A stretch of DNA of 32,000 bases. It comes from Streptosporangium roseum DSM 43021 (GTDB taxonomy: Bacteria > Actinomycetota > Actinomycetes > Streptosporangiales > Streptosporangiaceae). The stretch spans positions 4,091,798 to 4,123,797 of the forward strand of contig NC_013595.1 of NCBI RefSeq assembly GCF_000024865.1. Direction: 5' to 3'. Shown piece after piece: positions 5,076 through 28,620 of the stretch. Position numbers and translations under genes: made by a program. The notes beneath the pieces were generated by a model, which saw only the letters and a program-made list of their open reading frames with translations, was not told where the DNA came from and did not search any database. The first letter of the stretch is position 1. Each line of letters begins with the position of its first letter.

Positions 5076-5105
5076 CACCTGCTCCTTTCGCTCGTCATGC
5101 CCGTG

Positions 5106-12513: not shown

Positions 12514-14235
12514 GTGAAGACACCATTCGCCGCCTTCCGGCTCCGAATCGCGTTCATCTTCCTGGCGGTAGCGGCTTTCGTTCTGGGCTACGTCGGCATG
12601 CGGACCTATCTGGTCTCCCGGCCGGAGTTCGCGCGCTCGCCGCTGGACATCGTCTATTACGATCTCCAGCTGTTCGTTCTCGATCCCATCCCTTTCGACG
12701 GCATGACCCCGCTGCCGTGGACGCTGGAACTGGCCAGGTTCATCGCGCCCGCCGTGACGATCTACGCCCTGATCGAGGCGGCGCGGCTCATGCTCACCAC
12801 CGAGATCCGGCGGATCCGGGCGCGGGAGGCGCGGCGGCACGCCGTGATCTGCGGGGAGGGACCGATGGCCCGGGGACTGGTCGAGAAGCTGCGCGCCGCC
12901 GGGCGTGACGTCGTGGTGGTCACCTCCACCCCCGTCACCGTCCTGGACGACCCTCGCGTGCTCCAGGTGGTCGGCGACGCCCGCACCCCCGCCGTGCTCA
13001 GGGCGGCGGGGGTCGGCAGGGCCGAGGTGCTCTACGCCTGCGAGCAGGACAGCTCCACGAACACGGGGATCGCCCTGGCCGCTCACAGGGTCAGGCGGTC
13101 CGCCGCCGGCCCGCTGGCGGCCTACGTCCTCATCTCCGACCCCGATCTCTGCGCGGCCCTGCGTGCCCGGCGGCTGGGCGTGGTGGACCCGCCCGGCATC
13201 CGGCTGGACTTCTTCAACCTCGACGAACTCGCCGCCCGGGTGCTGCTGGACCGCGATCCCGTCGACGAATGCCTGCCCGTCACGCTTGTCGGCCTCGACG
13301 GCTTCGGCAGCGCGCTGCTCGTCGGCCTGGCCCGGCGGTGGCGGCTACGGTCTCCGCAGTCCCAGCCGAGACTGCCGGTGACCGTCATCGACGCGGACGC
13401 CGACGCGACACTGTCCGTCATACGCCGGAGATGCGAATTCATCGACTCCGTCCTCGACCTCACGACCGTCCACCCTCGCCTGCTCGACTCCGGCGAGCAC
13501 GCCCCCGCCGACGTGCCGCAGCGGGTGTACGTGTGCTACCGCGACGAGGACCTGGCCCTGAAGACCGCGCTGACCACCCTGCGGCTGTGGACCAGGTCAC
13601 CGCGCTCGCTCGTGATCCGGGTCGAACGGCAGGGAATGTTCGACCAGGCCTTCCAGGGAGTGAGCCTCCTGGAGGACCTGGCCGGCCTCCTGCGGGTGTT
13701 CGCCGTCACCGAGGAGGCCGGTGATCCGCGTCTGATCGCCGAGGACCTCATCGAGCAGCTGGCACGGACCATCCACGAGAACTACGTCTACGGCTGCCTC
13801 ACGAGCGGAGAGTCCCCGGAGACCAACGACTCGCTGGTCGCCTGGCCGAAGCTGCCCGAGAGCCTGAAGAAGGCCAACCGCAGCCAGGCCCAGGACATCG
13901 GCCGCAAGCTCAAGGCCGTCGGGGCCGTCCTCGCATCACGGGTGGACCCCGGACTCGGGTTCGCCTTCACCGAAGCGGAGATCGAGCGGCTCGCCGCCAT
14001 GGAGCACCGGCGCTGGATGGACGAGCGCGCCGCGGACGGCTGGACCCACGGCCCCTCCCGCGACACCGTCCGCAAGCTCCACCCCGACATGGAGGACTGG
14101 GCCCGCCTCCACGAATCGGCCAAGGAGAAGGATCGCAACGTCGTACGCCACCTGCCCGCCGTGCTCGCCATGGCCGGTTTCCAGATCGTCCGCATGGAGG
14201 GGGCCGCCCCGGAGGTCCCGCGGAGCTTCCTGTGA
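12514..14235 (+). CDS. 2-TM membrane protein with TrkA-N (Rossmann, NAD-binding-like) domain and C-terminal RyR (ryanodine-receptor repeat) domain
   Basis: GTG start with TGAGG 5 nt upstream. Two N-terminal hydrophobic helices are followed by a GxGxxA fold (AVICGEGPMARGLVEKLRAAGRDVVVV). The C-terminal region has LARTIHENYVYG...WPKLPESLKKANRSQA and ERLAAMEHRRWMDERAADGWTHGPSRD...LHPDMEDWARLHESAKEKDRNVVRHLPAVLAMAGFQIV, matching the bacterial RyR domain pattern. Confidence 0.75.
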   Translation: MKTPFAAFRLRIAFIFLAVAAFVLGYVGMRTYLVSRPEFARSPLDIVYYDLQLFVLDPIPFDGMTPLPWTLELARFIAPAVTIYALIEAARLMLTTEIRRIRAREARRHAVICGEGPMARGLVEKLRAAGRDVVVVTSTPVTVLDDPRVLQVVGDARTPAVLRAAGVGRAEVLYACEQDSSTNTGIALAAHRVRRSAAGPLAAYVLISDPDLCAALRARRLGVVDPPGIRLDFFNLDELAARVLLDRDPVDECLPVTLVGLDGFGSALLVGLARRWRLRSPQSQPRLPVTVIDADADATLSVIRRRCEFIDSVLDLTTVHPRLLDSGEHAPADVPQRVYVCYRDEDLALKTALTTLRLWTRSPRSLVIRVERQGMFDQAFQGVSLLEDLAGLLRVFAVTEEAGDPRLIAEDLIEQLARTIHENYVYGCLTSGESPETNDSLVAWPKLPESLKKANRSQAQDIGRKLKAVGAVLASRVDPGLGFAFTEAEIERLAAMEHRRWMDERAADGWTHGPSRDTVRKLHPDMEDWARLHESAKEKDRNVVRHLPAVLAMAGFQIVRMEGAAPEVPRSFL

Positions 14236-14298
14236 GCGGAGCCCTCTACGGGCGCGGGGCGCCCCGGAGACCCGATCCGTCCGGTCACCGCGGCTGTC

Positions 14299-15231
14299 TC
14301 ATCCGGCCACCAGGGGGATCACCACCAGCAGCAGGTCGGCCGCCAGGACCATGGACAGGCTCCGTTTGCGCATCGTCCTCTCATCGGGAAGGTTCTCGTC
14401 GGAGATGCCGGGCAGCAGGCCGAGTTTGTCGATGAGGAAAGCGGCGCAGGCCGCGACGCCCAGGAGTGACCACGCCGGGCCGTAGAGCCACCACAGGCCC
14501 CACCCGACGAGCACGAGCGCGCCCGCCGTGGCCGCGCAGGCCACCAGCAGGGACCGGTAGGCGCCGTGCCGTACGGCAGGCGGGCGGTCACCGGCGGCGG
14601 CGTCTCCGGCCAGGTCCGGAATGGACCACCACAGCGAGCGTCCGAACAGCAGCACCGCCAGGCCGGCGAACACCAGCCAGACGGGCGCCGGGACGTCCGG
14701 GCGGACGGCCGAGTAGGTCGACACGCAGGGCAGGAAGGCGAAGGTCAGGGCGAAGTAGGCGGGGTTGGCGAAGCCGCGCCGCTTCAGGCGGACGGGTTCG
14801 AGGTTGTAGAGCAGGTGCAGGACGATCGCCAGCCCCACGCCGATCGCCACCGCCGGACGGCCGAGCCCCACCGAGACCGCGGTCGCCAGCACCAGTGCCA
14901 GCGTCTTCTCGATCGCGGCGCACCGGAAGGCCACGGCCGGGCTGAGCCGCCGGGTCGCGGTGGCGATGCCGCCCTTCCCCCGCGTGTGGGAGTCCGCGCG
15001 GATGTCCAGCGCCGCGTTGAGCGGATTCTGCGAGACGACGGCGAGCAGGTTGGCCAGGAGGGTGACCAGTACGGGCACGGTGAACAGCTGCCCGGGGTCG
15101 GTCGCCGCGAAGCAGGCGCCCCAGAGCACGTGACACGCGTATACCGCCGGGAATGGGTATTCGAGCCGGTGGATGCGGATCAGTGCCCGTCCCCGGGTCA
15201 TCGGCCGGCTCCGAGTGGCCAGCGAGGTCAT
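14299..15231 (-). CDS. UbiA-superfamily membrane prenyltransferase / UbiA-type terpene synthase candidate
   Basis: About 8 TM helices. First Asp-rich motif NAALDIRAD (NxxxDxxxD) and second DLAGD (DxxxD) are present. AAGGAG lies 5 nt upstream of the ATG at 15231 (the ORF track starts at 15270). It is the last gene of the terpenoid operon, 49 nt after the P450 stop. Confidence 0.8.
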   Translation of the reverse strand: MTSLATRSRPMTRGRALIRIHRLEYPFPAVYACHVLWGACFAATDPGQLFTVPVLVTLLANLLAVVSQNPLNAALDIRADSHTRGKGGIATATRRLSPAVAFRCAAIEKTLALVLATAVSVGLGRPAVAIGVGLAIVLHLLYNLEPVRLKRRGFANPAYFALTFAFLPCVSTYSAVRPDVPAPVWLVFAGLAVLLFGRSLWWSIPDLAGDAAAGDRPPAVRHGAYRSLLVACAATAGALVLVGWGLWWLYGPAWSLLGVAACAAFLIDKLGLLPGISDENLPDERTMRKRSLSMVLAADLLLVVIPLVAG

Positions 15232-15280
15232 CGAATCTCCTTGAGTGTGGAGGCCCCGGGCTTCAGCCATGGGGAGGAAG

Positions 15281-16609
15281 TCAACCCTCGGTTCTCGTCA
15301 TGGGGGTGCCCGCGGCCGTCCCGCCCGATGTCCCGGCCCGCCGGGGGCACCCGCCGACCGCCATCCTGAGCGGCCCGGGACCCATGGCGGGCCCTCGCAG
15401 GTTCGGCACCCCGGCCTCGGGGTTGAGGCAGCGGAGAGCGTGCCGGCGCAGCACCGCCGCGACGACCATCCGCATCTCCAGCATGGCCAGGTTCGCGCCG
15501 AGGCACCGGCGGGTCCCTCCGCCGAAGGGGAGATACTCCTGGGCGGATCTCCGCGTGTCCAGGAACCGCGCGGGATCGAAGCGCCACGGGTGCGGGTAGG
15601 CCTCCGGGTTGCGATGGGCCAGGGCGATGCACGGGGTGAGGCGGGTGCCCGCAGGCATGGGCCGGCCGGCGATCCGCCGGTCGGCGGTGAGCGTCCGGTT
15701 GCCGGCGACCGTGGCGGGGGGAGAGATCCGCAGGGCTTCCTGGCACACCGCGTTCAGCAGGGGGACCCTCTCGGCGGCGGAGCCGTCGTCGCCGGTCGCG
15801 GCCAGCTCCTCCTGGACGTCGTGGCGGACGCGGTCGTCGCGGTGCAGCCAGAACAGGGTCCAGGCGATCGCGGACGCGGTCGTCTCATGGCCGGCGAACA
15901 GCAGCGACACCAGCTGGTCGGAGAGCTCCTCGTCGCCGACGGGGCCGAGGGGCTCGCTTCCGGCGGACAGCCGCGCGGCGAGCGTGGACGGTCCCGCGGC
16001 CGCCGTCGCGGGACGCGCGGCCTCCAGGAGGCTGTGGACGATCTCCGTCCTGCGCCGCCGGAAGGTCCGCCACGGTGACGGCAGCGGTCCGGGCACCCGC
16101 AGGTGGCGGTAGGCGAGGGTGCGGGGCCGGGATCCGAGCGTGTACTCCACCCACCTCGTGAAGGGGCCGAGCGTCTCGTGCCCGGCGTGGCCGAGCACGA
16201 TCTGCCCGATGATCCGGAGCGTCAGGTCGCGGGTCCATTCGGGCAGGCAGAACACCTCGCCCGGGACCAGCCCGTCCAGCGCGGCGTCGACGGCGTCACG
16301 GATGGTGCCGTGGTAGGCGGCCAGCCGGTGCCCGCGCAACGCCGTACCGACCACCTTGCGGTAGGCCGCGTGCCGTGGCCCGTTGGCGAAGAGCAGGGAG
16401 TGGGGCCCGACCAGAGGTCCCAGGGTGTCGCTGCCCTCCAGGACCATCTGCTGTTCGGAGCGGAAGATCTCCCCGACCGTCTCGGGGTGCCAGACCAGCA
16501 GTCGCGGCTCCGGAGCCGAGCCGAGCTCGACCATGCCGGTCCCGTCCGCGGCGTGGGCCTCCAGGAACGACCGCGTGCGCAGGGCGAACCGGTATCCGTT
16601 GAGGTTCAC
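15281..16609 (-). CDS. Cytochrome P450 monooxygenase
   Basis: Heme loop FGGGTRRCLG, I-helix LLFAGHETTASA and ExxR (EALR). Track ORF 15281..17287 runs 226 codons too far upstream, into the cyclase gene. I start at GTG 16609 (VNLNGYRFALRTRSFLE...), which has GGAGGGGG ~9 nt upstream. Confidence 0.9.
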   Translation of the reverse strand: MNLNGYRFALRTRSFLEAHAADGTGMVELGSAPEPRLLVWHPETVGEIFRSEQQMVLEGSDTLGPLVGPHSLLFANGPRHAAYRKVVGTALRGHRLAAYHGTIRDAVDAALDGLVPGEVFCLPEWTRDLTLRIIGQIVLGHAGHETLGPFTRWVEYTLGSRPRTLAYRHLRVPGPLPSPWRTFRRRRTEIVHSLLEAARPATAAAGPSTLAARLSAGSEPLGPVGDEELSDQLVSLLFAGHETTASAIAWTLFWLHRDDRVRHDVQEELAATGDDGSAAERVPLLNAVCQEALRISPPATVAGNRTLTADRRIAGRPMPAGTRLTPCIALAHRNPEAYPHPWRFDPARFLDTRRSAQEYLPFGGGTRRCLGANLAMLEMRMVVAAVLRRHALRCLNPEAGVPNLRGPAMGPGPLRMAVGGCPRRAGTSGGTAAGTPMTRTEG

Positions 16610-16661
16610 GCCGCCACCCCCTCCGCGCCTGCCGGGGGAGGAGCGCCGGGTGCGGGGGATG

Positions 16662-18395
16662 TCATCGCTGCCTCTCCAGGATCCGGGTCCGGGCCAGGGT
16701 GCGGGCGGCCAGCGTCTCGGCCCGGATGACCGCGACGGGCGCGTAGAGGTCCTTGTCGTGCCACAGGGGCGGGTACCGCCGGGCGTCGCCCCGGCGACCG
16801 TGACCGTCGGGTCCGTCGGGTCCGTCGGGTCCGCCGCGCTCGCCGTGGCGGTCATGGCCGCGGCGCCCGCCGGATCCGTCGTGGTCGTCGCGTCCGTCGT
16901 GGTCACGGTGGTCCGCGCGATGCTGCCCGGCGAGGAAGGCGTCACCGCGCAGCACGGCGCGGCGCACCGCGCCGTCGTCGCGTGCGGGGGCCCGGAGCAG
17001 GGTCTGCATCGCGTACGCGGTCTCCTCGGAGGTGCCGGACCACAGGCCCCATGACCCGTCGTGGCGCTGGGTGCCGAGCACCCACTCGGCGGCCGCGCGC
17101 AGCGCCGCGGCGGACGACGCGTCCCCGTGGCGGGCCAGGGCCGAGACGCTGCAGACCGTGGCGTAGTAGGGGGAGGCGTGCCATTTGTCGATCCAGCTCC
17201 CGTCGGGCCGCTGCTGCCCGTGCAGCCAGTGGGAGATCTTGCCGATCGCCCGCCGGTAGCGGGCCCGGTCCGCCGCGCCGGCCTCATGGTCCCCGAAGGC
17301 CATGAGGATGTGGGCGTTGGTGCTGGTGGAAGGAGTGCGCTCGGCGGCGAAGCAGCGGAAATGGGTGTCGGCCTCGTAGGCCCAGAGGCATTCCGGGGAC
17401 CGGGGCCTGCCGATGAGCGCCAGGGCGTGGAGCGCCCCGGCGGTGTCGTCCGAATCGGGCGGCAGGCCCGCGCCGGCGGGCACGCCGAGGTCGCCGAAGG
17501 CGGCGTGCAGGCTGTGGCCCAGCTCCCGGGGCGGCGCGGTGCCCGGAAACGCCTCGGCCAACGCCGAGAGCACCCAGGCCCGCTCGAAGACGCCGATCGG
17601 CGTCACGCCCGGGACCGGGCCGTCGTGCCTGGCCTGCACGGTGTGCAGGTATTCGATCGCGCGCCGCCGCTCCGTGCCCGCCCCGTCGCCGTCCCCGGGG
17701 CCCAGCCAGGCGGCGGTGGCGGCCGGCGAGCAGCCCACGGCCCCGCCGACGGGACGCACCTGGGGAGCCTGTACGGCGGTGCCCCCCAGCGCCTCCAGGG
17801 AGTGCCAGACCTTCGGGGGCAGCGCGTGCCCCTGCCCGGCGGCATGGCGGAGCCGGTCGAGGGGGGCCGGATCCCACCCGTCGGGTGTGTGGAGGCGCCC
17901 CGAGCCGTGCCAGGCGGCCAGTCCGGGGACGGGGTGCCTCTCCAGCGCGTCCAGATGCCGGTTGATCTCGCCGACGAGCCAGGGGATGAGGAACTCCGCC
18001 CCGATGGTGTCCGGAAGGACGGCTCTCGACTGGGGGTCCAGCCGCGCGAACAGCGCGTGCAGGCCGCGGTGGACGGCACCCGCGACATCGCTGTGGCCGG
18101 ATGCGGCCCGCTCGCCGGGCCGGGCGGCGCTCACCACGGTGAACAGGGCCTCGACCGCGCTGAGGGTGGGGACCAGCACGTAGGGGCCCGGTCCTCCCCA
18201 GGTGCCGTCCGGGTTCTGGCCCCGGATCAGGAACTCGATCCGCCGCCGGTGGCCGCTCAGCCACGGTGCCGACGCCACCAGCCGGGCCGTCTCGTAGACC
18301 GAGGCGGTGACCTGACCCATGGGATCGACGGCGATCTCAGCGAGAAGGTCCTGGGGAGAGGCTCCGGCGGGACGTGCCGTACGCGTGGTGCTCAT
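16662..18395 (-). CDS. Class II terpene cyclase (DxDD type, prenyltransferase/squalene-oxidase repeat fold); probable bicyclic prenyl-diphosphate (e.g. copalyl diphosphate-type) synthase
   Basis: DxDD-type general-acid motif in LPPDSDDTAGALHAL. The N-terminal DPMGQVTASVYETARLV resembles bacterial class II diterpene cyclases. QW-like repeats are present (QNPDGTWGG, QRPDGSWIDKW, QRHDGSWGLW). GGAGGA lies upstream of the ATG at 18395. A 50-aa H/D/R/G-rich insertion sits near the C-terminus. Confidence 0.85.
   Translation of the reverse strand: MSTTRTARPAGASPQDLLAEIAVDPMGQVTASVYETARLVASAPWLSGHRRRIEFLIRGQNPDGTWGGPGPYVLVPTLSAVEALFTVVSAARPGERAASGHSDVAGAVHRGLHALFARLDPQSRAVLPDTIGAEFLIPWLVGEINRHLDALERHPVPGLAAWHGSGRLHTPDGWDPAPLDRLRHAAGQGHALPPKVWHSLEALGGTAVQAPQVRPVGGAVGCSPAATAAWLGPGDGDGAGTERRRAIEYLHTVQARHDGPVPGVTPIGVFERAWVLSALAEAFPGTAPPRELGHSLHAAFGDLGVPAGAGLPPDSDDTAGALHALALIGRPRSPECLWAYEADTHFRCFAAERTPSTSTNAHILMAFGDHEAGAADRARYRRAIGKISHWLHGQQRPDGSWIDKWHASPYYATVCSVSALARHGDASSAAALRAAAEWVLGTQRHDGSWGLWSGTSEETAYAMQTLLRAPARDDGAVRRAVLRGDAFLAGQHRADHRDHDGRDDHDGSGGRRGHDRHGERGGPDGPDGPDGHGRRGDARRYPPLWHDKDLYAPVAVIRAETLAARTLARTRILERQR
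16806..16832. repeat. 3 x 9-bp perfect tandem repeat (GTCGGGTCC) inside the cyclase gene, encoding GPDGPDGPD
   Basis: Read directly at 16806..16814, 16815..16823 and 16824..16832. It lies within a wider low-complexity coding stretch at 16773..16922. Confidence 0.9.
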
Positions 18396-18522
18396 CCATT
18401 CCTCCGAGGGGGTGAGGTGTCTTCGGGGTCGGCGCTCACGGCTCCGGCGGCGGGCTGCGGGAGCCGGTACGGTGCTGTCCTCCGTACCGGTGAGATGCGC
18501 GGCCGGTGCTCTCGGGGCCGGA

Positions 18523-19737
18523 TCACGGCTCTGGCGCGCTTCCTGAGGGCGCCGGGACGTCGTCGCCCGCGTCCGCCTGCTCGGCGAGGCGCGTCGCCTC
18601 CTCGATGAGAGCTTCGATGATCTTCGATTCCGGGACGGTGGCGACGACCCGGCCGCGGACGAAGATCTGCCCCTTGCCGTTGCCGCTCGCGACGCCGAGA
18701 TCGGCCTCGCGGGCTTCGCCGGGCCCGTTGACGACGCAGCCCATGACGGCCACCCGCAGGGGCAGGGGGAACCCGTCGAAGGCGGCGGCGACCTGGTCGG
18801 TGAGCCGGTAGACGTCGACCTGCGCCCGGCCGCAGGAGGGGCAGGAGACGATCTCCAGCCGGCGCGGCCGCAGCCCGAGGGACTGGAGGATCTGCGTCCC
18901 GACCCTGACCTCTTCCACCGGTGGAGCGGACAGGGAGACGCGGATGGTGTCGCCGATGCCCTCGGCCAGCAGGATGCCGAACGCGGTGGCGGACTTGACG
19001 GTGCCCTGGAAGGCGGGACCGGCCTCGGTGACGCCGAGATGCAGGGGGTAGTCGCAGGACGCGGCCAGCACCCGGTAGGCGGCGATCATGGTCAGCGGGT
19101 CGTGGTGCTTGACGGAGACCTTGAGATCGGCGAAGCCGTGCTCCTCGAACAGGGAGCACTCCCACAGGGCCGATTCGGCCAGCGCCTCGGGGGTGGCACT
19201 GCCGTACTTGGCCAGTAACCGCCTGTCGAGGGAACCGGCGTTGACGCCGATCCGGATCGGGATCCCGGCCGCGCCGGCCGCACGGGCGATCTCCCCCACC
19301 TTGTCGTCGAAGGCCCGGATGTTGCCGGGATTGACCCGGACTGCGGCGCACCCGGCGTCGATGGCGGCGAAGACGTATCTGGGCTGGAAGTGGATGTCGG
19401 CGATCACCGGGATGGTGGATTTCCTGGCGATCTGCGGCAGGGCGTCGGCGTCGTCCTGGGACGGTACGGCGACGCGGACGATCTCGCAGCCCGCGGCGGT
19501 GAGTTCGGCGATCTGCTGGAGGGTGGCGCCGACGTCGGCGGTGACGGTGGTGGTCATCGACTGCACCGACACCGGGGCGTCCCCGCCCACCGCGACCCCG
19601 CCCACCTGGAGCCGGCGGGTCACCCGGCGCGGCCTGAGGACGGCGGAGGCAGGCGACGGGGAGGGAGACGACCGCGGGGCCGTGGGCGGGGCGCCGGTAC
19701 CGGGCATGCCCAGGAGGACGGGGGCGCTCATGACCAT
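18523..19737 (-). CDS. ispG: 4-hydroxy-3-methylbut-2-en-1-yl diphosphate (HMBPP) synthase
   Basis: [41 protein letters not shown] and the C-terminal CPSCGR Fe-S motif are present. The start overlaps the dxs stop (19728..19730). Confidence 0.95.
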
Positions 19738-21671
19738 CCTCCGACCGGCCGGGGCTCGCCCGCCGGTGAAGGGGCCGTCCGCCCGGGGACTCCCGGGCGG
19801 ACGGCCTCCAGCACGGAGGCGGTGATCGAGCGGTGGTCCAGGCCGGCGGCGGCCAGCAGGTGGGCGCGTTCACCGTGGCCGATGAACTCCCTCGGCAGAC
19901 CGAGGGTGCGTACCGGCGTCGTCAGGCCGGCGTCGGCGCACGCGGTGGCGATCGCCGTGCCGACGCCCCCGGTACGCAGGCCGTCCTCGGCGGTGACCAC
20001 CAGATGGTGCGCGGCGGCCAGCTCGACCAGCACCGGGGAGACCGGCGCCACCCAGCGCGGGTCGACCACCGTCACGCCGACCCCGTGGTGACGGAGCTGC
20101 GCGGCGGCGGCCAGGCACGGTCCCGCGAGCGGCCCGACGGCCACGAGCAGGGCCTGGTCGCCGTGCTGGGACAGCACGTCGACGCCGTCCGGACCGCCGA
20201 GCCTCCGTGGCGCCGCGATGTCAGGGCCGGCATTGGCCTTGGGATAGCGGACCACGGTCGGCCCGCCGTCATGGCCGACGGCCTCGTGGAGCAGCTCGCG
20301 CAGCCGGGTCGCGTCGCGGGGGGCGGCGATCCGCAGTCCGGGGATCATGCCGAGCAGCACCAGATCCCACATGCCGTGGTGGCTGGGGCCGTCCGGTCCG
20401 GTGATCCCGGCCCGGTCCAGGACGAACGTGACGGGGAGCCGGTGCAGGGCGACGTCCATCAGCGCCTGGTCGAAGGCCCGGTTGCAGAAGGTCGCGTACA
20501 TCGCGACGATCGGATGCATGCCGTTCAGGGCGAGCCCCGCGGCGCAGGCGACGGCGTGCTGCTCGGCGATGCCGACGTCGAAGAAACGGTCGGGGAACCT
20601 GGTCGCGAACTCGGCCAGCCCGGTCGGGCCCGGCATCGCCGCCGTGATCGCCACCACGCCGGGATGCTCGGCGCCGATCACGGTCATCTCGTCGGCGAAC
20701 AGCGACGTCCACGACGGCGGCGCCGCGCCGGGCACGTCGTGCGGGCGTCCGGTGGCCGGGTCCAGCACCCCGATCCCGTGCATGTGGTCGGCCCTGTCGT
20801 TCTCGGCAGGGCCGTACCCCTTGCCCTTGACCGTCACCGCGTGCACCACCACGGGCCGGCGCAGGGCACGGGCCTGGCGGAGTGCCCCCTCCAGCGCGCC
20901 GATGTCGTGGCCGTCGACCGGTCCCAGGTAGGAGAAGCCCAGGCTTTCGAACACGTTGGGGACGCCCGGCCGGGGAGAGGGGACCCCGGGCCGGCGCAGG
21001 GTGGCGAGGTGGCTCGCGAGCCCGCCGACCGTGGGGGCGTAGGAGCGGCCGTTGTCGTTGAGCACGATGATCGCGGGGCGGCCGGGCGCGGCACCGAGGT
21101 TGTTCACCGCCTCCAGCGCCAGGCCGCCGGTCAGCGCCCCGTCCCCGATCACCGCCACCACGTGCCTGTCCGTGTGGCCGCGGAGCTGGAAGGCCCTCGC
21201 CAGGCCGTCGGCGTAGGACAGGGCGGTCGAGGCATGGGAGTTCTCGACGAGGTCGTGGACCGACTCCGCGCGGCTCGGATACCCGGACAGCCCGCCAGCC
21301 TGGCGCAGCCGGTCGAAGCCGCCCTGGCGGCCGGTGAGGATCTTGTGCACGTAGGCCTGGTGGCCGGTGTCGAACACGATCGCGTCCCGGGGCGAGGCGA
21401 ACACCCGGTGCAGCGCGATGCTGAGCTCCACCGCCCCCAGGTTGGGACCCAGATGACCACCCGTGGCGCTGACCTTGTCCACCAGGAAACGGCGGATCTC
21501 GCCGGCCAGTTCGGGCAGCCGGCCCGGTGGCAGGCGGCGCAGGTCGCCGGGGCCGTTGATCCGGGGGAGAAGGCCGCTCGTGATCGTCGTGCCGGTGCCG
21601 GCCGGCGTTTTCGCGGCGGAGGCGGCGTCCTGGCTCGCGTGGGGGACGGCGGTGGCGATGTCAGCGCTCAT
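19728..21671 (-). CDS. dxs: 1-deoxy-D-xylulose-5-phosphate synthase
   Basis: [36 protein letters not shown], the ThDP motif [15 protein letters not shown] and [11 protein letters not shown] are present. The protein is 647 aa. The start overlaps the ispH 3' end by 11 nt. Confidence 0.95.
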
Positions 21672-22680
21672 TCGTACGCACTTCCTTAGGCGGAGCGAAG
21701 CGGACGGTTTCGGTGGTGTGGCGGTGCTCCCGGACCCGCAGCGGCCCCAGGCCGCGGAGAAAGGCGATGACCTCCTCCACCAGGTGGTGCGGGGCCGAGG
21801 CGCCCGCGCTCAGGCCGATCACGCGGGCCCCGTGGAGCCATCCGGGTTCGATGCCGCCGGCGTCGTCGATCAGGTGGGCCGGGGTGCCCTGGCGCCGGGC
21901 GAGCTCGACCAGCCGCACCGAGTTGGAGGAGTTGACCGATCCGACGACCAGCACCAGGTCGGCGGCGGCGGCGATCCCCGCCACGGCGTGCTGCCGGTTG
22001 GTGGTGGCGTAGCAGATGTCGTCGCTGCCGGGCCCGGAGAGCGCCGGGAACCGGTCCCGCAGCGCCTCGACCACCTCGGAGGTCTCGTCCACTGCCAGGG
22101 TGGTCTGGGTCAGATAGGACACCCGGGTGGGGTCGTCGACCTCCAGGGCGGCCGCCTCGGCGGGGGTCTGGACCAGCACGCTCTGCCGCGGCGCCTCGCC
22201 GAGGGTGCCCTCGACCTCCTCGTGCCCGGCGTGCCCGATCAGCACGACGGTGTCGCCGCGCGCGGCGAAGCGGCGGGCCTCGACGTGCACCTTGGTGACC
22301 AGGGGGCAGGTGGCGTCGACCACCCGCAGCCCCTTGCGGCCGGCCTGCGCCCGGACCGCCGGGGAGACGCCGTGCGCGGAGAACACCACGGTCTCCCCGT
22401 CGGGCACCTCGTCGAGCTCCTCGACGAAGACGGCGCCGCGCCGCCGTAGATCGGCGACCACGTGAACGTTGTGCACGATCTGCTTACGGACGTAGACGGG
22501 GGCGCCGCGGTCGGCCAGGACGCGTTCCACGGTCTCGATCGCCCGCTCGACACCGGCGCACAGCGAGCGGGGTGAGGCCAGCAGCACCGTCCGGACGGAG
22601 CCGTCGGGCAGCCCGCCGACCGGCGGTCCGTCCATGGTCAGCCCGTCCGTAGGCGTCGTCGTGGGCATGTGGTCGGCCAT
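21661..22680 (-). CDS. ispH: 4-hydroxy-3-methylbut-2-enyl diphosphate reductase (canonical, all catalytic residues present)
   Basis: [67 protein letters not shown] and GASAP match the E. coli residues C12/H41/H74/C96/H124/E126/T167/C197/S225-N227/S269. The ATG at 22680 lies 1 nt after the upstream gene's stop. Confidence 0.95.
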
Positions 22681-22681
22681 G

Positions 22682-23728
22682 TCAGCGGTCCCGCCGGGTG
22701 ATCAGCTGGGCCAGCAGGCGGAGGTCGCCGGCCGCTTCCGGGGCGGGGTCGGCCTGCCGCAGGCAGGCCAGCGCGGCGGCGAGGTTGGCCTCGGCCTCCC
22801 GCTGCGCCCAGGCGCGGGCACCGGCCGCCTCGATGAGGTCGGCGGCATGGGCGAGGGACCGCTCGTCCAGGATCCGGTCGCCGTGGTAGAGCCGGGCCAG
22901 CCGCTCGCCCGCGGGGGTGCCCGAGGTGAGGGCGGCGACCACCGGCAGGGACTTCTTGCGGGCGGCCAGGTCGGAGAAGACGGGTTTGCCGGTGACGGCG
23001 GGATCCCCCCAGATCCCCAGGAGATCGTCCGTGAGCTGGAAGGCCAGCCCGAGATGGTGGCCGAACCGCCCGAACAGCCCGGCGCGGTCCTGGCCGGCGC
23101 CACCGGCCAGCGCGCCGATCTCGCAGGCGCAGCCCAGCAGCGCCCCGGTCTTGCCCGCGGCCATCTCGACGCACTGGGCGAGGGTGACGTCGGTACGGGT
23201 TTCGAACGCCAGGTCGGCGCTCTGCCCTGAGCACAGCCGTAGCAGCGAGCCGGTCAGCACCCTCAGGCCCGGGCTCCCGGCGAGCAGGTCCAGGGCGAGG
23301 GTCAGCAGCACGTCGCCGGCCAGGATGGCCTCGCCGACCCCGAACACCGACCACGCGGCCGGCCGGTGCCTGCGGGTCAGGTCGCCGTCCATGATGTCGT
23401 CGTGCAGCAGGGAGAAGTCGTGGACCAGCTCCACCGCGACCGCGGCCGGCACCGCCGCCCGGACGGTCTCCGCGTCCTCGCCGCCGGCCGCCCACGCCGA
23501 GGCCAGCACCAGGGCCGGCCGGACCGCCTTGCCGCCGCCCTGCCGCGGGCGGCCTTCGGCGTCCCACCAGCCCGCGTGGTAGCCGGCGATGTGGCGGATC
23601 TCCTCCGGCAGGCGGTCCACCGCGCCGCGGTGAGCCGGTCCGGCCAGCTCCTGGGCCGCGGCCAGTACCTCATGTGCCGATCGCGTGGTGCTGTCGGTGA
23701 AGCCGAGCACTGGTGCGGTCGTCACCAC
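22682..23728 (-). CDS. Polyprenyl diphosphate synthase, probable geranylgeranyl diphosphate synthase
   Basis: [14 protein letters not shown] and [13 protein letters not shown] are present. I prefer GTG at 23728 ([10 protein letters not shown]...), with GGAAAGAGG ending 5 nt upstream, over the track start at 23827. Chain length cannot be read from sequence (Phe at -5 of FARM); GGPP is inferred from context. Confidence 0.85.
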
Positions 23729-24129
23729 ACTCACCTCTTTCCTGTTTTTCCGGATTTCCGGGCGCTGCCGGAGCGATATGAACGGACGCGGCCGACGCCG
23801 CATCCCCGCGACGAAGGGCAGGCTCACTTCCAGTACGGCTGGCGCCGCAATGTCTCGGAACCCCCCGGCGCCGGGGGAGTGGTTTCATTTGCCGGCCGTG
23901 TTTCACGCCGGTGGCCGAGGTCGCGGGGCGCGCCTCCGGGCCACCGGTGGACGGAAAGGAAAGGAGGCGGAGAGCCGTACGGCCGGAGCGGCGGCCGCGG
24001 CCGTTGCCGCAGATGGAAGCGGTGAGCCGGACGGCCGTCCCCGGGCGGGCGCCCATCGGCGGGCGGCCCGCCCGGCCCTGTGCCCGAGAACGGAGGACTA
24101 TTGTCGCCGCGCCGGGTGAGAGGACCCGG

Positions 24130-25512
24130 ATGGCGACAGGACACCGACCGAACGTCCGGCTGCGGGCACTGCTGACCGAGACCGGGTGGACCGGCCAGCA
24201 ACTGGCCGGCGCGGTGAACGATCTCGGCGTCGAGGCGGGGGTGACGCTGAGGTACGGCCGGGCGGCGGTCGCGCACTGGCTGGCGGGCATGCGTCCGCGC
24301 TCTCCGGTGCCGGACCTGGTGGCCGAGGCGCTGTCGCGCCGGCTCGGGCGCTCCCTGACCGCCGCCGAGATCGGTCTGTCGCGGCCGGATCGGGAGCCCC
24401 GCGACCCTGCCGGCGCCGACGTCGGCGGCGCGGCCTGGTGGGAGGCGGACGCCCTGGCCGGGCTGGTCGAGCTGCACGCCGGGCCCCGCCCCGGCCGGCG
24501 GCGGGTGCTGGAGGAATGCGTCTACAACCTGGCCGCGCTGACCGTCCCCGGCTGGGCCGACGCCACGGTGGCGGCGGTGACCGCCGGCGGCGGCCGCGAT
24601 CCGGCGCCGCGGATAGGCGCCCCGCAGGTGGAGGCGGCCGCGGCGATGGCCCAGGTGTTCTCCTACACCGACACGGCCTTCGGCGGCGGCCAGGCCCGCC
24701 GGGCCCTGTCGGGGTATCTCGCCGTGGACGTCGTGCCGTGGCTACGGTGCCGGATGAGCTCAACCACCCGCCGCAGGATGCTGTCGATCGCCGCCGAGCT
24801 GACATACCTGTGCGGTTTCATGTGCTTCGACGAGCAACTCCACGGTGCCGCGCAGCGCTACTACCAGGCGGCCCTGAAGCTCGCCGCCGAGAACGGCGAC
24901 GCGGTCGGTTACGCGGTCACCCTGCGGGCGCTGTCGGTTCAGGCCTACACCCTGGGACACCACCGTCATGCCCTCGACCTCGCCGAAGCGGCCCTGTCGG
25001 GTGTCCCGGGGGCGATCGAGCCCGGCACCCGGGCCTTCCTCCACGGGCAGGCCGCCGTCGCCGCGGCCGCGAGCCGGAGCGAGTGCCGCGCCGCGCTGAC
25101 GCACCTCCGCGCGGCCGAGCACCATCTGGATCACGCCGTCGCCACGACGGGGACCGGCGCGGAGACGGTGGGCGCCTACCACCAGGCGTCCCTCGCCCAT
25201 CAGCACGCCGCGGTGCTGACCGCGCTGGAGGACCGGCCCGCCGCCGTCGAGGCCCTGACCACCTCCATACGGCACCGCCCGGCCACCGAACGCCGGGCCC
25301 GCGCGCTCACCTCCGCCACCCTGGCGGGGCTCTACCTCGACCAGGGGCATCTGGAACAGGCCGCGGCCACCTGGCACACCTTCCTCGACGACTATCCCCA
25401 TCTGAGCAGCGGACGGACCCGCGCCGCCCTGGCGACGCTCAAAGCGCGACTCCGCCCCTACCAGCGCAACACCCTCGCCAGAGGGGTGCTGCAGCGCGCC
25501 GCGACCATGTGA
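24130..25512 (+). CDS. Transcriptional regulator, N-terminal HTH (XRE-like) with C-terminal helical TPR-like domain
   Basis: MATGHRPNVRLRALLTETGWTGQQLAGAVNDLGVEAGVTLRYGRAAVAHWLAGMRP... is an N-terminal pattern I recognise from a family of actinomycete regulators. The C-terminal half is Ala/Leu-rich repeats (YYQAALKLAAENGD...). GAGAGGA lies 7 nt before the ATG at 24130. It is divergent from the terpenoid operon. Confidence 0.7.
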   Translation: MATGHRPNVRLRALLTETGWTGQQLAGAVNDLGVEAGVTLRYGRAAVAHWLAGMRPRSPVPDLVAEALSRRLGRSLTAAEIGLSRPDREPRDPAGADVGGAAWWEADALAGLVELHAGPRPGRRRVLEECVYNLAALTVPGWADATVAAVTAGGGRDPAPRIGAPQVEAAAAMAQVFSYTDTAFGGGQARRALSGYLAVDVVPWLRCRMSSTTRRRMLSIAAELTYLCGFMCFDEQLHGAAQRYYQAALKLAAENGDAVGYAVTLRALSVQAYTLGHHRHALDLAEAALSGVPGAIEPGTRAFLHGQAAVAAAASRSECRAALTHLRAAEHHLDHAVATTGTGAETVGAYHQASLAHQHAAVLTALEDRPAAVEALTTSIRHRPATERRARALTSATLAGLYLDQGHLEQAAATWHTFLDDYPHLSSGRTRAALATLKARLRPYQRNTLARGVLQRAATM

Positions 25513-25639
25513 ACCGGCGCCGGAGGCGTGTATCGGGCCGCCCACGGGGAACCCATGGCCTGGCGGGTCGCGCGAGCCCGCACCGAAACCCGAATCCGGC
25601 GCCGGGGGCTCGGCCTCCGGCACGACCGAGGACACAGGC

Positions 25640-26902
25640 TTGAACAGGACCAAGATCCGGGAACGTTTCGCCTGCCAGAAGGTACCCAGGGGAGGAGTGG
25701 TCGTCGCCTCCTCCTTCGGACACCCCGACCGGGGGGTGATCGAGTGTCCGGCCGCGCCGGCCCTGGGCGCGGCGCTGGCCCGCGACGGGCTGCGCGTGCG
25801 CTACGCGCCGCTGACCGCGGACCCGGCCGGCCGGCCCGCTCCCCGCGGCGGCCACATGCTCGCCGTCTCCTACCTCGAACGCGACGGCCGTGCCGCCGGC
25901 CTCGCGGCCGCCGTCCACCCCGACGATCATGCCGCCACCGAGGTGGTCGGCGACGCGATGAGGCGGTGGGAGGCCGCCATGCGCAGCCGCCGCGTCCTGC
26001 TGGCCGGCACCCGGCCGGCCTGTCCCGGTGCCCGGCGGGCCCTGGAGATCACCCGGGACACGGCCGGCGGCGGCCAGGCGGTGTTCAGCTACGGCCCCGT
26101 CACCGACGACCCCCACCAGGCCGGGGCCCTGACCCGCGAGGGCGTCACCACGGTCACCGATCTCGACCGGCTCCCGGAGGGGGCCGGCGTCGTCTTTCCC
26201 GCCCACGGCGTGTCCCTGGCGCTGCGCGCCGAAGCCGCCGCCCGTGGCCTGACGATCATCGACGCCACCTGCCCCCTGGTGGCCGCGGCCCACGCCGAGG
26301 TGGCGCGCTTCACCGAACGCGGAGACCTCACCGTCGTGATCGGCAGGTCCGGTGACGCGGCCGTCTCCGCCGTCCTCGGCCAGGCCCCGGAATCGACCGT
26401 CCTGGTGGAGAGCGCCGCCGACGTGGAGCGGCTCCGGCCGGCCGACCCGGAGGCGATCTCCTACCTGGTCCAGACCGGCATCCCCGTCGAGCAGGCCACT
26501 CCCGTCGTCGCCGCCCTCCGCGCCCGCTTCCCCGCCCTGCGCGGTCCCGACCCCGGCGACTTCTGCTATCACGCCTCCGACCGCGCGAGCGCCGTCGCCT
26601 CCATCACCGGCGCCAGCGATCTCCTGCTCATTGCCGCGGGATCACACTGCCCGGACGCCCGGCACGTCGTCCGCCTCGCCGAGCCGGCCGGCGTCCCGGC
26701 GCAGGTCGTCACCGGCGTCGCCGACCTGTGCCCGGACCGGCTGCGGGAGGCCGCCACCGTCGCTCTCACCAGCGCCCGGTCGGCTCCGGCCGGGCTCTCC
26801 GAGCAGATCGTCACGATCCTGTCCGGCCTGGGCCCTCTCGGCGTCGTCAACCGTCACGTCACCAGCGACATCGTCACCGGCCGGACGCGCGCGCGGGCGT
26901 GA
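25640..26902 (+). CDS. Divergent IspH/LytB-like Fe-S protein with N-terminal extension (probably not an HMBPP reductase)
   Basis: From aa ~118 it aligns with the neighbouring ispH and with E. coli IspH (RRVLLAGTRPACPGARRA, FPAHGVS, DATCPLVAAAH, FCYHASDRA, SARSAP). All 3 cluster Cys are kept, but [10 protein letters not shown] is GRSGDAAVSA and SVNSSNS is GSHCPDA. The start is uncertain: TTG at 25640 is the ORF limit, and GC3 rises only from ~25697. Confidence 0.7.
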   Translation: MNRTKIRERFACQKVPRGGVVVASSFGHPDRGVIECPAAPALGAALARDGLRVRYAPLTADPAGRPAPRGGHMLAVSYLERDGRAAGLAAAVHPDDHAATEVVGDAMRRWEAAMRSRRVLLAGTRPACPGARRALEITRDTAGGGQAVFSYGPVTDDPHQAGALTREGVTTVTDLDRLPEGAGVVFPAHGVSLALRAEAAARGLTIIDATCPLVAAAHAEVARFTERGDLTVVIGRSGDAAVSAVLGQAPESTVLVESAADVERLRPADPEAISYLVQTGIPVEQATPVVAALRARFPALRGPDPGDFCYHASDRASAVASITGASDLLLIAAGSHCPDARHVVRLAEPAGVPAQVVTGVADLCPDRLREAATVALTSARSAPAGLSEQIVTILSGLGPLGVVNRHVTSDIVTGRTRARA

Positions 26903-27957: not shown

Positions 27958-28620
27958 CCTCCCTTCAACATCCTTCTCCGCCGGGGATTCCCCGGCAGGG
28001 CTCCCGGAGGCCCCGGGACACGCGGCCTCGAGGTGTTCTCCGGACATCCGGATGGGGATCGTGAGCGTGAAGGAGGGTGGGCGGGCCTCCGCGCCGAGCC
28101 GGCCCGCCGCGCCGTCGCCGGGGACCGGGAGGGCGCGCGGGCCGCGACCGCGCGAGCCGGGACAATCGTTGACTCAAGCGCTTGGTTGTTTTGGCGGATA
28201 ATCCGGAAAGCCCCTCACCTCCGCCGGTGGCCGGAGGCGGCTGGCGGGGATTTCCGCTGGTCGAATTGTTTGTCAAGCGCCCGCGGGGCATCCGTGTCCG
28301 GAGCGGCACGCCGTGGCCCGGCCGGCGGCGCCGTATTAGGCGGGCCGGCGTGTATCCGGCGTGATTGGAATCAACGTGGCGCCATCCGGTGCGTTACGGT
28401 CTCCGGGCGGGAGTCCGGGATTCGGGGAGGGGGCCTTCGTCACCGGTCTGAGCTGCGAGAACAATATTTCCGGGCGATTTTGTGCGCGGTGTTCCGGGGC
28501 TGCGGGATTGCCGTTGATTCACCGGCCGGCGGCTTTTATCACGCGGCGCTTATCTCAACAGATTTTCGTGGATTTGCGATACGAAATCGCCGTCTGACTG
28601 AACTGTCTGACGCGGAGATA

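Follow-up and report, generated by a model that had tools for sequence, protein, structure and literature searches.

Results

Organisation of the locus

The window, meaning the whole 32,000-nt stretch of Streptosporangium roseum DSM 43021 that was analysed, contains the following features:

14299..15231, minus strand: UbiA-type membrane diterpene synthase, PtmT1-like, predicted ent-atiserene-type (310 aa)
15281..16609, minus strand: cytochrome P450, counterpart of the P450 between ptmT2 and ptmT1 (442 aa)
16662..18395, minus strand: class II (DxDD) diterpene cyclase, predicted ent-copalyl diphosphate (ent-CPP) synthase (577 aa)
18523..19737, minus strand: IspG (HMBPP synthase), cluster-borne (GcpE, NF001540)
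19728..21671, minus strand: Dxs (DXP synthase), cluster-borne (DXP_synthase_N, TIGR00204)
21661..22680, minus strand: IspH (HMBPP reductase), cluster-borne catalytic copy (LYTB, TIGR00216)
22682..23728, minus strand: IdsB-like short-chain polyprenyl diphosphate synthase, predicted GGPP synthase (polyprenyl_synt)
23819..23913, no strand: conserved non-coding block, putative promoter/operator of the operon (from conservation)
24130..25512, plus strand: NsdA-family TPR-like regulatory protein (460 aa, NF053720)
25640..26902, plus strand: N-extended IspH-like iron-sulfur protein without the IspH catalytic residues (420 aa, LYTB)

The stop of the polyprenyl synthase gene, which heads the operon and has an alternative GTG start at 23734, is 1 nt from the ispH start. 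The ispH/dxs and dxs/ispG overlaps are 11 and 10 nt, and gaps of 127, 52 and 49 nt separate ispG from the cyclase gene, the cyclase gene from that of the P450, and the latter from the UbiA gene. An earlier sequence-only reading had described seven minus-strand genes with exactly these coordinates, overlaps and spacings, and all of them were confirmed. Purine-rich runs resembling ribosome-binding sites (RBS) precede the chosen starts of the UbiA, P450, cyclase, ispG, dxs and polyprenyl synthase genes, and the gene calls of an identical public contig (L001) also give products of 577, 442 and 310 aa. A simple scan found neither a sigma-70-type promoter nor a terminator, so that the operon structure is read from spacing alone; the seven genes are probably co-transcribed. 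Their order is identical in five other Streptosporangium genomes, hence the arrangement is not due to chance.

The boundary of the unit was drawn by comparing Streptosporangium strains. The nine-gene block, all ORFs of which are intact and high in GC3, is kept in S. canum, G12 and OZ121 with differing outer flanks, and its chromosomal site varies between strains. The outer limit proposed earlier included the regulator, the IspH-like gene and an LLM oxidoreductase; the former two belong to the predicted unit, which is 14299-26902, while G12 and OZ121 have no such oxidoreductase flanking the cluster, which places it outside. An IS4 transposase is found nearby, at 29579-30709. The 32 kb had also been said to lack a class I terpene synthase, and our searches agree: no sizeable ORF gave a Pfam match, tblastn with four class I synthases returned only E>0.1, and the DDxxD...NSE motif pair did not occur in any frame.

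The cyclase-P450-UbiA triad

The cyclase (Pfam SQHop_cyclase_C, 1.2e-15) is a beta-gamma enzyme with a lineage-specific 45-aa insertion. Its closest solved relative is the ent-CPP synthase PtmT2 (5bp8, E 3.6e-122, 46% identity by BLASTP), and it matches Tpn2 at 3.5e-70, whereas the match to squalene-hopene cyclase reaches only 1e-11 across ~110 aa and its score with the hopene-cyclase model is 52 bits (cut-off 431). A squalene-hopene cyclase was therefore excluded. The PtmT2 motifs PDTIGAEF (DxxxxE), DSDD, NAH, DKWHASPYYAT and WHDKDLYAPV are all retained, and the E-value against PtmT2 passes the 1e-88 threshold by which the actinobacterial ent-CPPS cluster was defined (Stowell 2022, PMC9814783). 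We regard ent-CPP as a likely intermediate.

The UbiA-type protein (Pfam UbiA, 7.5e-23) is 64% identical to the PtmT1/PtnT1 protein cluster, named ent-atiserene synthase by its database sources, and PMC4004862 and PMC10847714 describe the PtmT1-type function. Both Asp-rich motifs, NxxxDxxxD (N72/D76/D80) and D206/D210, show little or no variation, and the AF2 model (pLDDT 95) is all-helical with the UbiA fold (TM 0.72-0.77 against AfUbiA, 4tq4). The UbiA relatives around the triad form a deep and varied family: those outside the PtmT1 clade are 39-57% identical to the window protein. Single residues are known to switch ent-pimaradiene, ent-isokaurene, ent-atiserene and ent-kaurene synthases (PMC11795633). 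Because a few residues can change the product of a terpene synthase, 64% identity to PtmT1 leaves the scaffold unfixed.

The P450 (Pfam p450, 3.9e-51) shows FGGGTRRCLG as its heme motif and AGHETT in the I-helix, and is 62% identical across 429 aa to the P450 that the PtmT2 and PtmT1 homologues flank in the ptm cluster (L082). By analogy with the platencin pathway, its reaction would be a methyl-to-acid oxidation. The gene order of the triad in the window equals PtmT2-P450-PtmT1, with identities of 46/62/64%, and an NJ tree places the UbiA protein as sister to PtmT1; the analogy with ptm/ptn drawn by the sequence-only reading was borne out, and the likeness proved closer than that reading could show. 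Of 79 actinomycete species loci, 69 have the triad collinear, with the P450 in the middle, which makes it a widespread actinomycete cassette.

Precursor-supply genes

All three MEP-pathway proteins pass their NCBIfam cut-offs: IspG (Pfam GcpE 5.8e-139; NF001540, 517 bits against 345), Dxs (DXP_synthase_N 4.8e-94; TIGR00204, 569 against 466) and IspH (LYTB 1.8e-91; TIGR00216, 304 against 188), the last with its three Cys and the NSSNS motif intact. The window Dxs shares 99% identity with one from Streptosporangium roseum. High-ranking matches come from just five Streptosporangium protein clusters, relatives above 70% identity are confined to a handful of Streptosporangium strains, and other genera reach at most 67%. 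The window dxs, ispG and ispH may be extra copies beside a housekeeping set, for which the support is indirect. The polyprenyl synthase (Pfam polyprenyl_synt, 6.4e-55; top PDB match 3nf2, 2e-77) has the FARM motif DDIMD with Phe at position -5. It scores 334 bits with GGPPsyn_IdsB, under the cut-off, and passes no other NCBIfam equivalog cut-off either, so that its C20 chain length is a prediction.

Regulator, IspH-like protein and upstream block

The regulator matches NCBIfam NF053720 with 364 bits (cut-off 75). Its true start is probably ATG 24130 rather than GTG 23911, given the 460-aa call in L084 and the RBS. In every Streptosporangium copy it lies divergently to the operon, and its identity to the SP15_N protein found at the equivalent position is 61% in L091 (GCA_009772515.1) and 49% in L092 (metagenome ERZ27337137), two uncharacterised clusters with class I terpene synthases. 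Directly downstream of it in the Streptosporangium clusters, L091 and L092 lies the gene of the IspH-like protein (Pfam LYTB 6.3e-55, residues 119-394). The AF2 model of this protein (pLDDT 92.6) has the IspH fold in its C-terminal part (3szu, Foldseek E 2.4e-26, target TM 0.84). The fold and the three invariant iron-sulfur Cys are common to it and canonical IspH/LytB (E. coli, 3szu/3f7t), but the catalytic H41, H124, E126 and T168 and the diphosphate-binding SSN motif of the E. coli enzyme are replaced by residues conserved within the family of the IspH-like protein itself. Its added N-terminal domain of ~115 aa is conserved and contains a CPAAP motif; residues 1-115 gave no match. Most members of this family have neighbours unrelated to isoprenoid genes (Pro_CA, Meth_synt_2). 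We infer that both proteins have roles in the cluster.

The divergent intergenic region of 401 nt contains a conserved block with the layout GTGAAACA-N10-AATGAAAC, then CCCCCGGCGCCGGGGGG, then TTCCGA-N19-TACTGG, without an Rfam match. It is almost invariant among Streptosporangium strains with proteins 75-79% identical, and in L091 the same layout precedes the polyprenyl synthase gene. In 3.28 Mb of loci, seven of the nine matches to TGAAAC-N8-30-TGAAAC were at the block position (7/7 with N12); the exact TGAAAC repeat is absent from L092.

Like the window, L091 and L092 carry an SP15_N/NsdA-like regulator, a long IspH-like protein, polyprenyl synthase, ispH, dxs and ispG, the six proteins being 44-82% identical to those of the window, and L091 shares the upstream GTGAAAC-repeat block. 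Unlike the window, they have class I Terpene_syn_C_2 synthases in place of the class II and UbiA pair, and the scaffold genes of L092 also include a Rieske protein and a P450. Since the regulator, the IspH-like protein, the upstream block and GGPPS-ispH-dxs-ispG recur beside unrelated class I terpene synthases, they appear to be a portable supply-and-control module.

Discussion

Proposed pathway and alternative explanations

From these results, the best overall explanation of the locus, to which we give a probability of about 0.7, is a nine-gene diterpenoid unit, most likely of the ent-atiserene type, that looks assembled from two recurrent modules. The supply and control module would comprise the upstream block and the polyprenyl synthase, ispH, dxs and ispG at the operon head, with the divergent NsdA-family regulator and the IspH-like iron-sulfur protein as companions. 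IspH, Dxs and IspG would add capacity at three steps of the MEP pathway, and the polyprenyl synthase would convert IPP/DMAPP to GGPP. The scaffold module would be the triad: the DxDD cyclase would protonate GGPP to give ent-copalyl diphosphate, the two Asp-rich Mg2+ sites of the UbiA-type enzyme would ionise the diphosphate for further cyclisation, most likely to ent-atiserene, and the P450 would act last, oxidising the hydrocarbon. The substrates and products in this scheme are deduced from sequence. That the cluster is a labdane-related one with the UbiA protein as second cyclase is very likely, and ent-atiserene as the main scaffold is somewhat favoured.

The same architecture could instead lead to another labdane-related scaffold (ent-kaurene, ent-beyerene, ent-trachylobane or ent-pimaradiene) or proceed through a different CPP stereoisomer, in which case the oxidised end product would have no relation to the atisane series. 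Both the diversity of the UbiA family and the single-residue switches cited above speak for this; however, the clade of the window protein is sister to that of the one member characterised so far, which has the same neighbours, and the cyclase keeps every catalytic motif of PtmT2, which makes such a scaffold rather unlikely. A more distant idea is that the UbiA protein is a true prenyltransferase, attaching a copalyl or geranylgeranyl group to an aromatic acid, glycerol phosphate or nucleoside to form a meroterpenoid or a membrane lipid. It is recognised only by generic UbiA prenyltransferase models in Pfam and NCBIfam, some relatives are annotated as 4-hydroxybenzoate polyprenyltransferase by their sources, the nearest solved folds to its model are prenyltransferases, and in M. 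tuberculosis a transferase, Rv3378c, acts after the class II cyclase. Yet the nearest characterised relative is a cyclase, the NCBIfam prenyltransferase equivalogs score at most 40 bits against cut-offs of 205-313, and acceptor-biosynthesis genes are absent from the conserved nine-gene block, so we find this reading improbable.

It is hardly credible that the locus is a housekeeping MEP/GGPP operon beside a hopanoid-type cyclase, or a decayed, non-functional remnant, even with MEP genes that look catalytically intact and the IS4 transposase at hand. The cyclase is closest to PtmT2 and fails the hopene model, the window holds no squalene synthase genes, and close Dxs relatives occur in few Streptosporangium strains, while a vertically inherited gene would be expected family-wide; the chromosomal site of the block varies, and its ORFs are intact with high GC3. 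Returning to the two-module ent-atiserene-type unit, the most likely cluster product would be an uncharacterised oxidised ent-atiserene-type diterpene. The suggestion that the product may be new thus stands for the end product and the host, both uncharacterised. It does not extend to the scaffold, which is probably of the known ent-atiserene type in view of the PtmT1-like triad, or to the kind of cluster, which is already known.

Comparison with known systems

The isotuberculosinol operon of M. tuberculosis (Rv3377c-Rv3383c; idsB - lytB1 - dxs2 - Rv3378c - Rv3377c) resembles the window in having GGPP synthase, IspH/LytB and Dxs in the same order at its head and diterpene synthases, among them a class II DxDD cyclase, further down. 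There, too, the polyprenyl synthase gene (idsB) comes first; the genome encodes further, redundant isozymes of the GGPPS-lytB-dxs feeder at other sites, and the operon was probably acquired by horizontal transfer (PMC3470408). The M. tuberculosis cyclase, however, forms a halimane diphosphate, and the match between it (6vpt) and the window cyclase has an E-value of only 1.9e-24; Rv3378c has no relationship to UbiA, ispG and a P450 are lacking, and dxs2 is a pseudogene.

A likely UbiA cyclase is encoded by 14% of 342 actinobacterial ent-CPPS clusters (Stowell 2022, PMC9814783), and the window cluster belongs to this recognised class. That survey names no products, and describes neither the fixed cyclase-P450-UbiA order nor the feeder/regulator module.

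The ptm/ptn clusters of Streptomyces platensis are similar to the window in carrying a GGPP synthase (PtmT4) and extra MEP genes, in the identical cyclase motifs of PtmT2, and in a UbiA-type enzyme that replaces a class I synthase in the atiserene branch. Differences lie in the host, which in our case belongs to the order Streptosporangiales, in the regulator and IspH-like pair, not found adjoining the triad outside Streptosporangium, and in the feeder genes, which are arranged otherwise and are nearer to those of L091 (GGPPS 72%, ispH 79%) than to their counterparts in the ptm-like L006 (48% and 68%). The window lacks the class I ent-kauranol synthase, alpha-ketoglutarate dioxygenases, acyl-CoA dehydrogenase, ligases, thiolase and aminobenzoate-type genes of L082; it holds no platencin tailoring genes, and a platencin cluster was ruled out. 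The window cluster would carry the first three steps of the platencin pathway together with its own precursor supply.

Results

Gene content and layout of the operon

The seven minus-strand open reading frames proposed in the sequence-only reading were all recovered with the same boundaries, and each could be assigned to a family:

14299-15231, minus strand, UbiA-type protein (Pfam, 7.5e-23)
15281-16609, minus strand, cytochrome P450 (Pfam, 3.9e-51)
16662-18395, minus strand, class II cyclase (SQHop_cyclase_C, 1.2e-15)
18523-19737, minus strand, ispG (NF001540, 517 bits; cut-off 345)
19728-21671, minus strand, dxs (TIGR00204, 569 bits; cut-off 466)
21661-22680, minus strand, ispH (TIGR00216, 304 bits; cut-off 188)
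22682-23728, minus strand, polyprenyl synthase (Pfam, 6.4e-55)

The genes are tightly packed: a single nucleotide separates the synthase stop from the ispH start, the next two junctions are overlaps (11 nt, then 10 nt), and the spacers leading on to cyclase, P450 and UbiA measure 127, 52 and 49 nt. Matching calls for these last three genes (577, 442 and 310 aa) exist on an identical public contig. A longer, 323-aa version of the UbiA frame, starting at 15270, had no exact match on look-up and was discarded in favour of the 310-aa call of the public contigs, which starts at 15231. A scan for sigma-70 promoters and terminators was uninformative.

No class I terpene synthase was detected in the 32 kb by any of three approaches, as had been claimed: Pfam gave no match in any sizeable ORF, tblastn with four class I enzymes returned nothing below E 0.1, and the DDxxD...NSE motif pair was absent from all frames.

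The cyclase-P450-UbiA triad

The cyclase contains the motif DSDD, the DxDD general acid of class II beta-gamma enzymes. Its best match in the PDB is PtmT2 (5bp8, E 3.6e-122), the ent-copalyl diphosphate (ent-CPP) synthase of platensimycin and platencin biosynthesis (PMC4004862, PMC10847714), with far weaker matches to Tpn2, a clerodienyl synthase (3.5e-70), and to Rv3377c, which makes a halimadienyl product (1.9e-24). The DxxxxE and DSDD motifs of PtmT2, its activating His, the Lys, the DKWHASPYYAT segment and the C-terminal WHDKD with its Asp are all retained; the roles of these motifs have been described (PMC9814783). From this similarity to PtmT2, the product of the cyclase is predicted to be ent-CPP. 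The competing identity named in the sequence-only reading, a squalene-hopene cyclase, was rejected, along with a hopanoid cluster: TIGR01507 scored 52 bits against a cut-off of 431, the match to squalene-hopene cyclase (1e-11) spans only about 110 residues where a protein of about 630 aa would be expected, and the squalene/phytoene synthase family is absent from all window ORFs examined.

Directly before WHDKD, the cyclase carries a 45-residue low-complexity insertion rich in His, Asp, Gly and Arg (residues ~491-536, window 16740-16880). It includes a perfect 9-nt tandem repeat of 3.3 copies (16804-16833) encoding GPDGPDGPDG. The insertion occurs only in the roseum/canum lineage, and is missing in strains G12 and OZ121 and in PtmT2.

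The UbiA protein, encoded two genes from the cyclase, has about 8-9 predicted hydrophobic helices and conserves both Asp-rich motifs of the family (N72/D76/D80 and D206/D210). Its predicted structure is an all-helical UbiA fold (pLDDT 95) with a TM score of 0.72-0.77 to AfUbiA. On prenyltransferase equivalog models it reached at most 40 bits against cut-offs of 205-313. It is 96% identical to a protein cluster of S. roseum, S. canum and S. minutum sequences, and 64% identical to one that contains PtnT1 and proteins named ent-atiserene synthase. A neighbour-joining tree of 79 UbiA relatives, calculated without bootstrap, places the Streptosporangium sequences as sister group to the clade with PtmT1. 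By identity, tree position and model scores, the protein groups with PtmT1/PtnT1 and not with the prenyltransferases. PtmT1 is a dedicated ent-atiserene synthase (PMC4004862, PMC10847714). In the ptm locus of S. decoyicus/platensis (L082), a P450 gene separates the genes for the PtmT2 and PtmT1 homologues, so that the order cyclase, P450, UbiA matches that of the window; the window P450 is 62% identical to the protein it encodes. To our knowledge, bacterial UbiA-type diterpene synthases are known almost only from PtmT1/PtnT1.

One genome per species was scanned, and a UbiA relative was found at 79 loci. At 69 of these the three genes of the triad stand side by side on one strand in the order cyclase, P450, UbiA; these loci are distributed over Lentzea, Amycolatopsis, Kibdelosporangium, Kutzneria, Prauserella, Saccharomonospora, Rhodococcus rhodnii, Streptomyces and Streptosporangium. 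MEP genes lie within 10 kb at only 6 of the scanned loci, and 9 have a GGPPS-like gene. In the majority of Pseudonocardiaceae loci (38, among L026-L081), a gene for a protein of about 266 aa follows directly downstream of UbiA on the opposite strand; judged by its sequence rather than by a Pfam scan, it looks like a PF04672-type SAM methyltransferase. The same family was called at the left end of a class I terpene cluster (L091, GCA_009772515.1), and is absent from the Streptosporangium clusters. Many triads of Lentzea (L039-L080) lie directly downstream of suf iron-sulfur assembly genes, a lycopene-cyclase-like gene recurs nearby in 17 loci, and in many Lentzea assemblies the contig stops about 6 kb beyond UbiA, suggesting that a repeat or a region that is hard to assemble follows.

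Likely UbiA cyclases have been reported with actinobacterial ent-CPP synthases in 14% of 342 clusters (PMC9814783). Full-text searches on PtmT1, ent-atiserene, UbiA-type synthases and diterpenes of Streptosporangium turned up no paper on the present cluster, and none characterising any member of this class outside S. platensis.

Boundaries of the unit

A block of nine genes is conserved in S. canum and in strains G12 and OZ121 (L084-L086), consisting of the seven-gene operon and, divergent from it, genes for an NsdA-family (SP15_N) regulator and an IspH-like protein. In roseum and canum the block is flanked by an LLM oxidoreductase gene and, at its opposite end, by a gene for a TrkA/RyR protein; in G12 and OZ121 the neighbours are an ornithine-cyclodeaminase-like gene and ABC permeases. 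Since the flanks beyond the nine genes differ among strains, the LLM gene (26929-28047) lies outside the unit, which occupies different chromosomal sites. Accordingly, the wider boundary suggested earlier, to about 28047, stands for the regulator and the IspH-like gene and falls for the LLM oxidoreductase, which is missing beside the cluster in G12 and OZ121.

An IS4-family transposase (29579-30709) and an MmyB-like regulator (30788-31681) are located just past the cluster flank, and the pair is also present in S. canum. Together with the differing insertion sites in G12 and OZ121, this pair suggests that the cluster is mobile. In S. canum (17433-19008 of L084) and, by spacing, in S. minutum, about 1.7 kb separates the UbiA and TrkA/RyR genes; in S. 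canum this spacer holds an aldo-keto reductase gene and a 221-aa ORF, and the corresponding spacing in the window is 63 nt (14236-14298). The window also holds other, unrelated neighbours: a heavy-metal P-type ATPase together with a YtkA-like gene (2838-6074), a heparinase II/III-like protein (8999-10672), and the TrkA_N and RyR-domain protein itself (12514-14235), whose gene is convergent with UbiA.

Regulator, IspH-like protein and upstream block

The regulator most likely starts at the ATG at 24130, not at 23911: this start gives 460 aa, as in S. canum, and is preceded by a GAGAGGA ribosome-binding site. The divergent intergenic region would therefore measure 401 nt. Within it, a non-coding block (23819-23913, 85-185 nt upstream of the synthase start) contains a pair of GTGAAAC-type direct repeats at a distance of 18 nt, together with a GC palindrome and TTCCGA-N19-TACTGG. 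The block is near-invariant across Streptosporangium strains whose proteins share only 75-79% identity, and its layout also precedes the synthase gene in the unrelated class I cluster L091. In 3.28 Mb of loci, 7 of the 9 matches to TGAAAC-N8-30-TGAAAC fall at this position, each of these 7 with N12. No Rfam match was obtained, which disfavours a riboswitch or other known RNA, and we read the block as a putative promoter/operator.

The IspH-like protein (25640-26902) retains C128, C211 and C309, the cysteine ligands of the [4Fe-4S] cluster, which are invariant in 101 family members. Compared with E. coli IspH it lacks H41, H124, E126, T168 and the diphosphate-binding SSN motif, with VHN changed to DDP, HAGHPE to RSGDAA and NSSNS to SHCPD; the E. 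coli reference sequence aligned at 56% with the true IspH of the window. With the catalytic Glu126 and the diphosphate-binding His41/His124/Ser-x-Asn replaced, the protein should not be classed as an HMBPP reductase, and it scored at most 195 bits on the NCBIfam IspH equivalogs (cut-offs 420-444). The predicted structure (pLDDT 92.6) superposes on IspH over its C-terminal part (3szu, E 2.4e-26); the N-terminal domain, conserved, about 115 residues long and bearing a CPAAP motif, has no PDB or Pfam match. The family (proteins of about 420 aa, 370 matches, with members in L087-L093) has conserved residues of its own in place of the catalytic ones. Most members sit between beta-carbonic anhydrase and Meth_synt_2 genes with no isoprenoid genes nearby; the subfamily nearest to the window protein always follows an SP15_N/NsdA-like regulator and adjoins a polyprenyl synthase-ispH-dxs-ispG operon.

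Precursor supply genes

The polyprenyl synthase, a putative GGPP synthase, has a FARM motif DDIMD with Phe at -5 and scores 334 bits on the IdsB GGPPS model, below its cut-off of 475. Its score on another NCBIfam model, "family 2 encapsulin cargo polyprenyl transferase", is higher and close to threshold (437 bits; cut-off 450); the window ORFs scanned gave no match to an encapsulin-related Pfam family.

Indirect evidence suggests that dxs, ispG and ispH of the cluster are probably extra copies. Dxs is 99% identical to an S. roseum Dxs, and its best 120 relatives include only five protein clusters at 75% identity or more, all from Streptosporangium; other genera reach at most 67%, and no other named Streptosporangiaceae genus appears in the annotated matches among these 120. 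This drop in identity outside Streptosporangium among the matches listed is not the pattern expected of a housekeeping gene passed on vertically. The identities of Dxs and of the UbiA protein place the window in S. roseum or a very close relative. In addition, the genes belong to a block that lies at different loci in different strains, only 3 of the 7 MEP pathway genes are present in the cluster, and there is a precedent in the M. tuberculosis operon Rv3383c-Rv3382c-Rv3379c-Rv3378c-Rv3377c, where the feeder enzymes duplicate the function of housekeeping isozymes (PMC3470408).

The same supply and control genes were found in two class I terpene clusters, L091 and the metagenomic L092 (ERZ27337137). 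In L091 the supply operon continues into two class I terpene synthases. In L092, whose divergent layout matches that of the window, the genes that follow encode one class I synthase together with a Rieske protein and a P450.

Identity of supply-and-control proteins to those of the window (L091; L092)
Regulator: 61%; 49%
IspH-like protein: 52%; 44%
GGPPS: 72%; 58%
IspH: 79%; 65%
Dxs: 65%; 65%
IspG: 78%; 82%

With the ptm-like locus L006, the window GGPPS and IspH share 48% and 68%. Since both are nearer to L091 than to L006, the Streptosporangium cluster appears to be a mosaic in which a supply module of the L091 type is joined to a scaffold triad of the ptm type.

Discussion

From these results, a pathway may be proposed. 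The extra Dxs, IspG and IspH would raise the supply of IPP and DMAPP, from which the IdsB-like synthase would form GGPP; the DxDD cyclase, given its similarity to PtmT2, would convert GGPP to ent-CPP, and the UbiA-type enzyme would ionise and cyclise the latter, most likely to ent-atiserene, as its sister position to PtmT1 suggests. The P450 would then oxidise the hydrocarbon; its ptm counterpart presumably catalyses a methyl-to-acid oxidation in the platencin pathway, and the same reaction may occur here.

Two known products were considered as the outcome of this pathway. The triad is shared with the platencin/platensimycin cluster, and in L082 it is surrounded by a tailoring set (dioxygenases, acyl-CoA ligases/dehydrogenase, thiolase and ADHBA genes) of which there is no member in the window, nor in the block conserved across Streptosporangium. 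The end product would therefore be a simple oxidised diterpene, not platencin. A norditerpenoid from Streptosporangium itself, k4610422 (PMC10301674), was set aside. It is probably a tricycle of the nor-pimarane type, which suits clusters that combine class II and class I enzymes.

A broader hypothesis concerns the modules. The regulator, the IspH-like protein, the GTGAAAC block and the GGPPS-ispH-dxs-ispG genes may form a portable, self-regulating supply cassette, in which the disabled IspH-like protein, having kept its Fe-S site, would act not as an enzyme but as a sensor or regulatory partner of the NsdA-family protein, responding to an MEP intermediate, redox or iron-sulfur status; separately, the triad, which occurs in about 70 actinomycete species, would produce an oxidised diterpenoid of the ent-atisane type that is widespread. 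We regard this hypothesis as tentative, with roughly one chance in four of being correct.

The minimal cluster, a triad with its own precursor supply, offers a clean system for studying the products of the UbiA family outside platencin producers, and a route to ent-atisane-type acids or alcohols by heterologous expression. It also allows one to ask why the order of the triad persists across dozens of species in Pseudonocardiaceae, Streptomyces and Streptosporangium. The supply-and-control module, in turn, is a ready part for raising diterpene titres and points to a possible non-catalytic role of an IspH paralogue.

Overall, the cluster recognised in the sequence-only reading is confirmed and its interpretation supported, with the boundary corrected. 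It is an uncharacterised example of a known cluster type, and its most interesting aspects are that the triad recurs and that the supply-and-control module, which includes a disabled IspH paralogue, is portable. The order of the genes at the head of the operon is the same as in the M. tuberculosis operon (PMC3470408). Current understanding is not overturned by these findings; rather, a known theme is extended to a new genus and its modular build is exposed.
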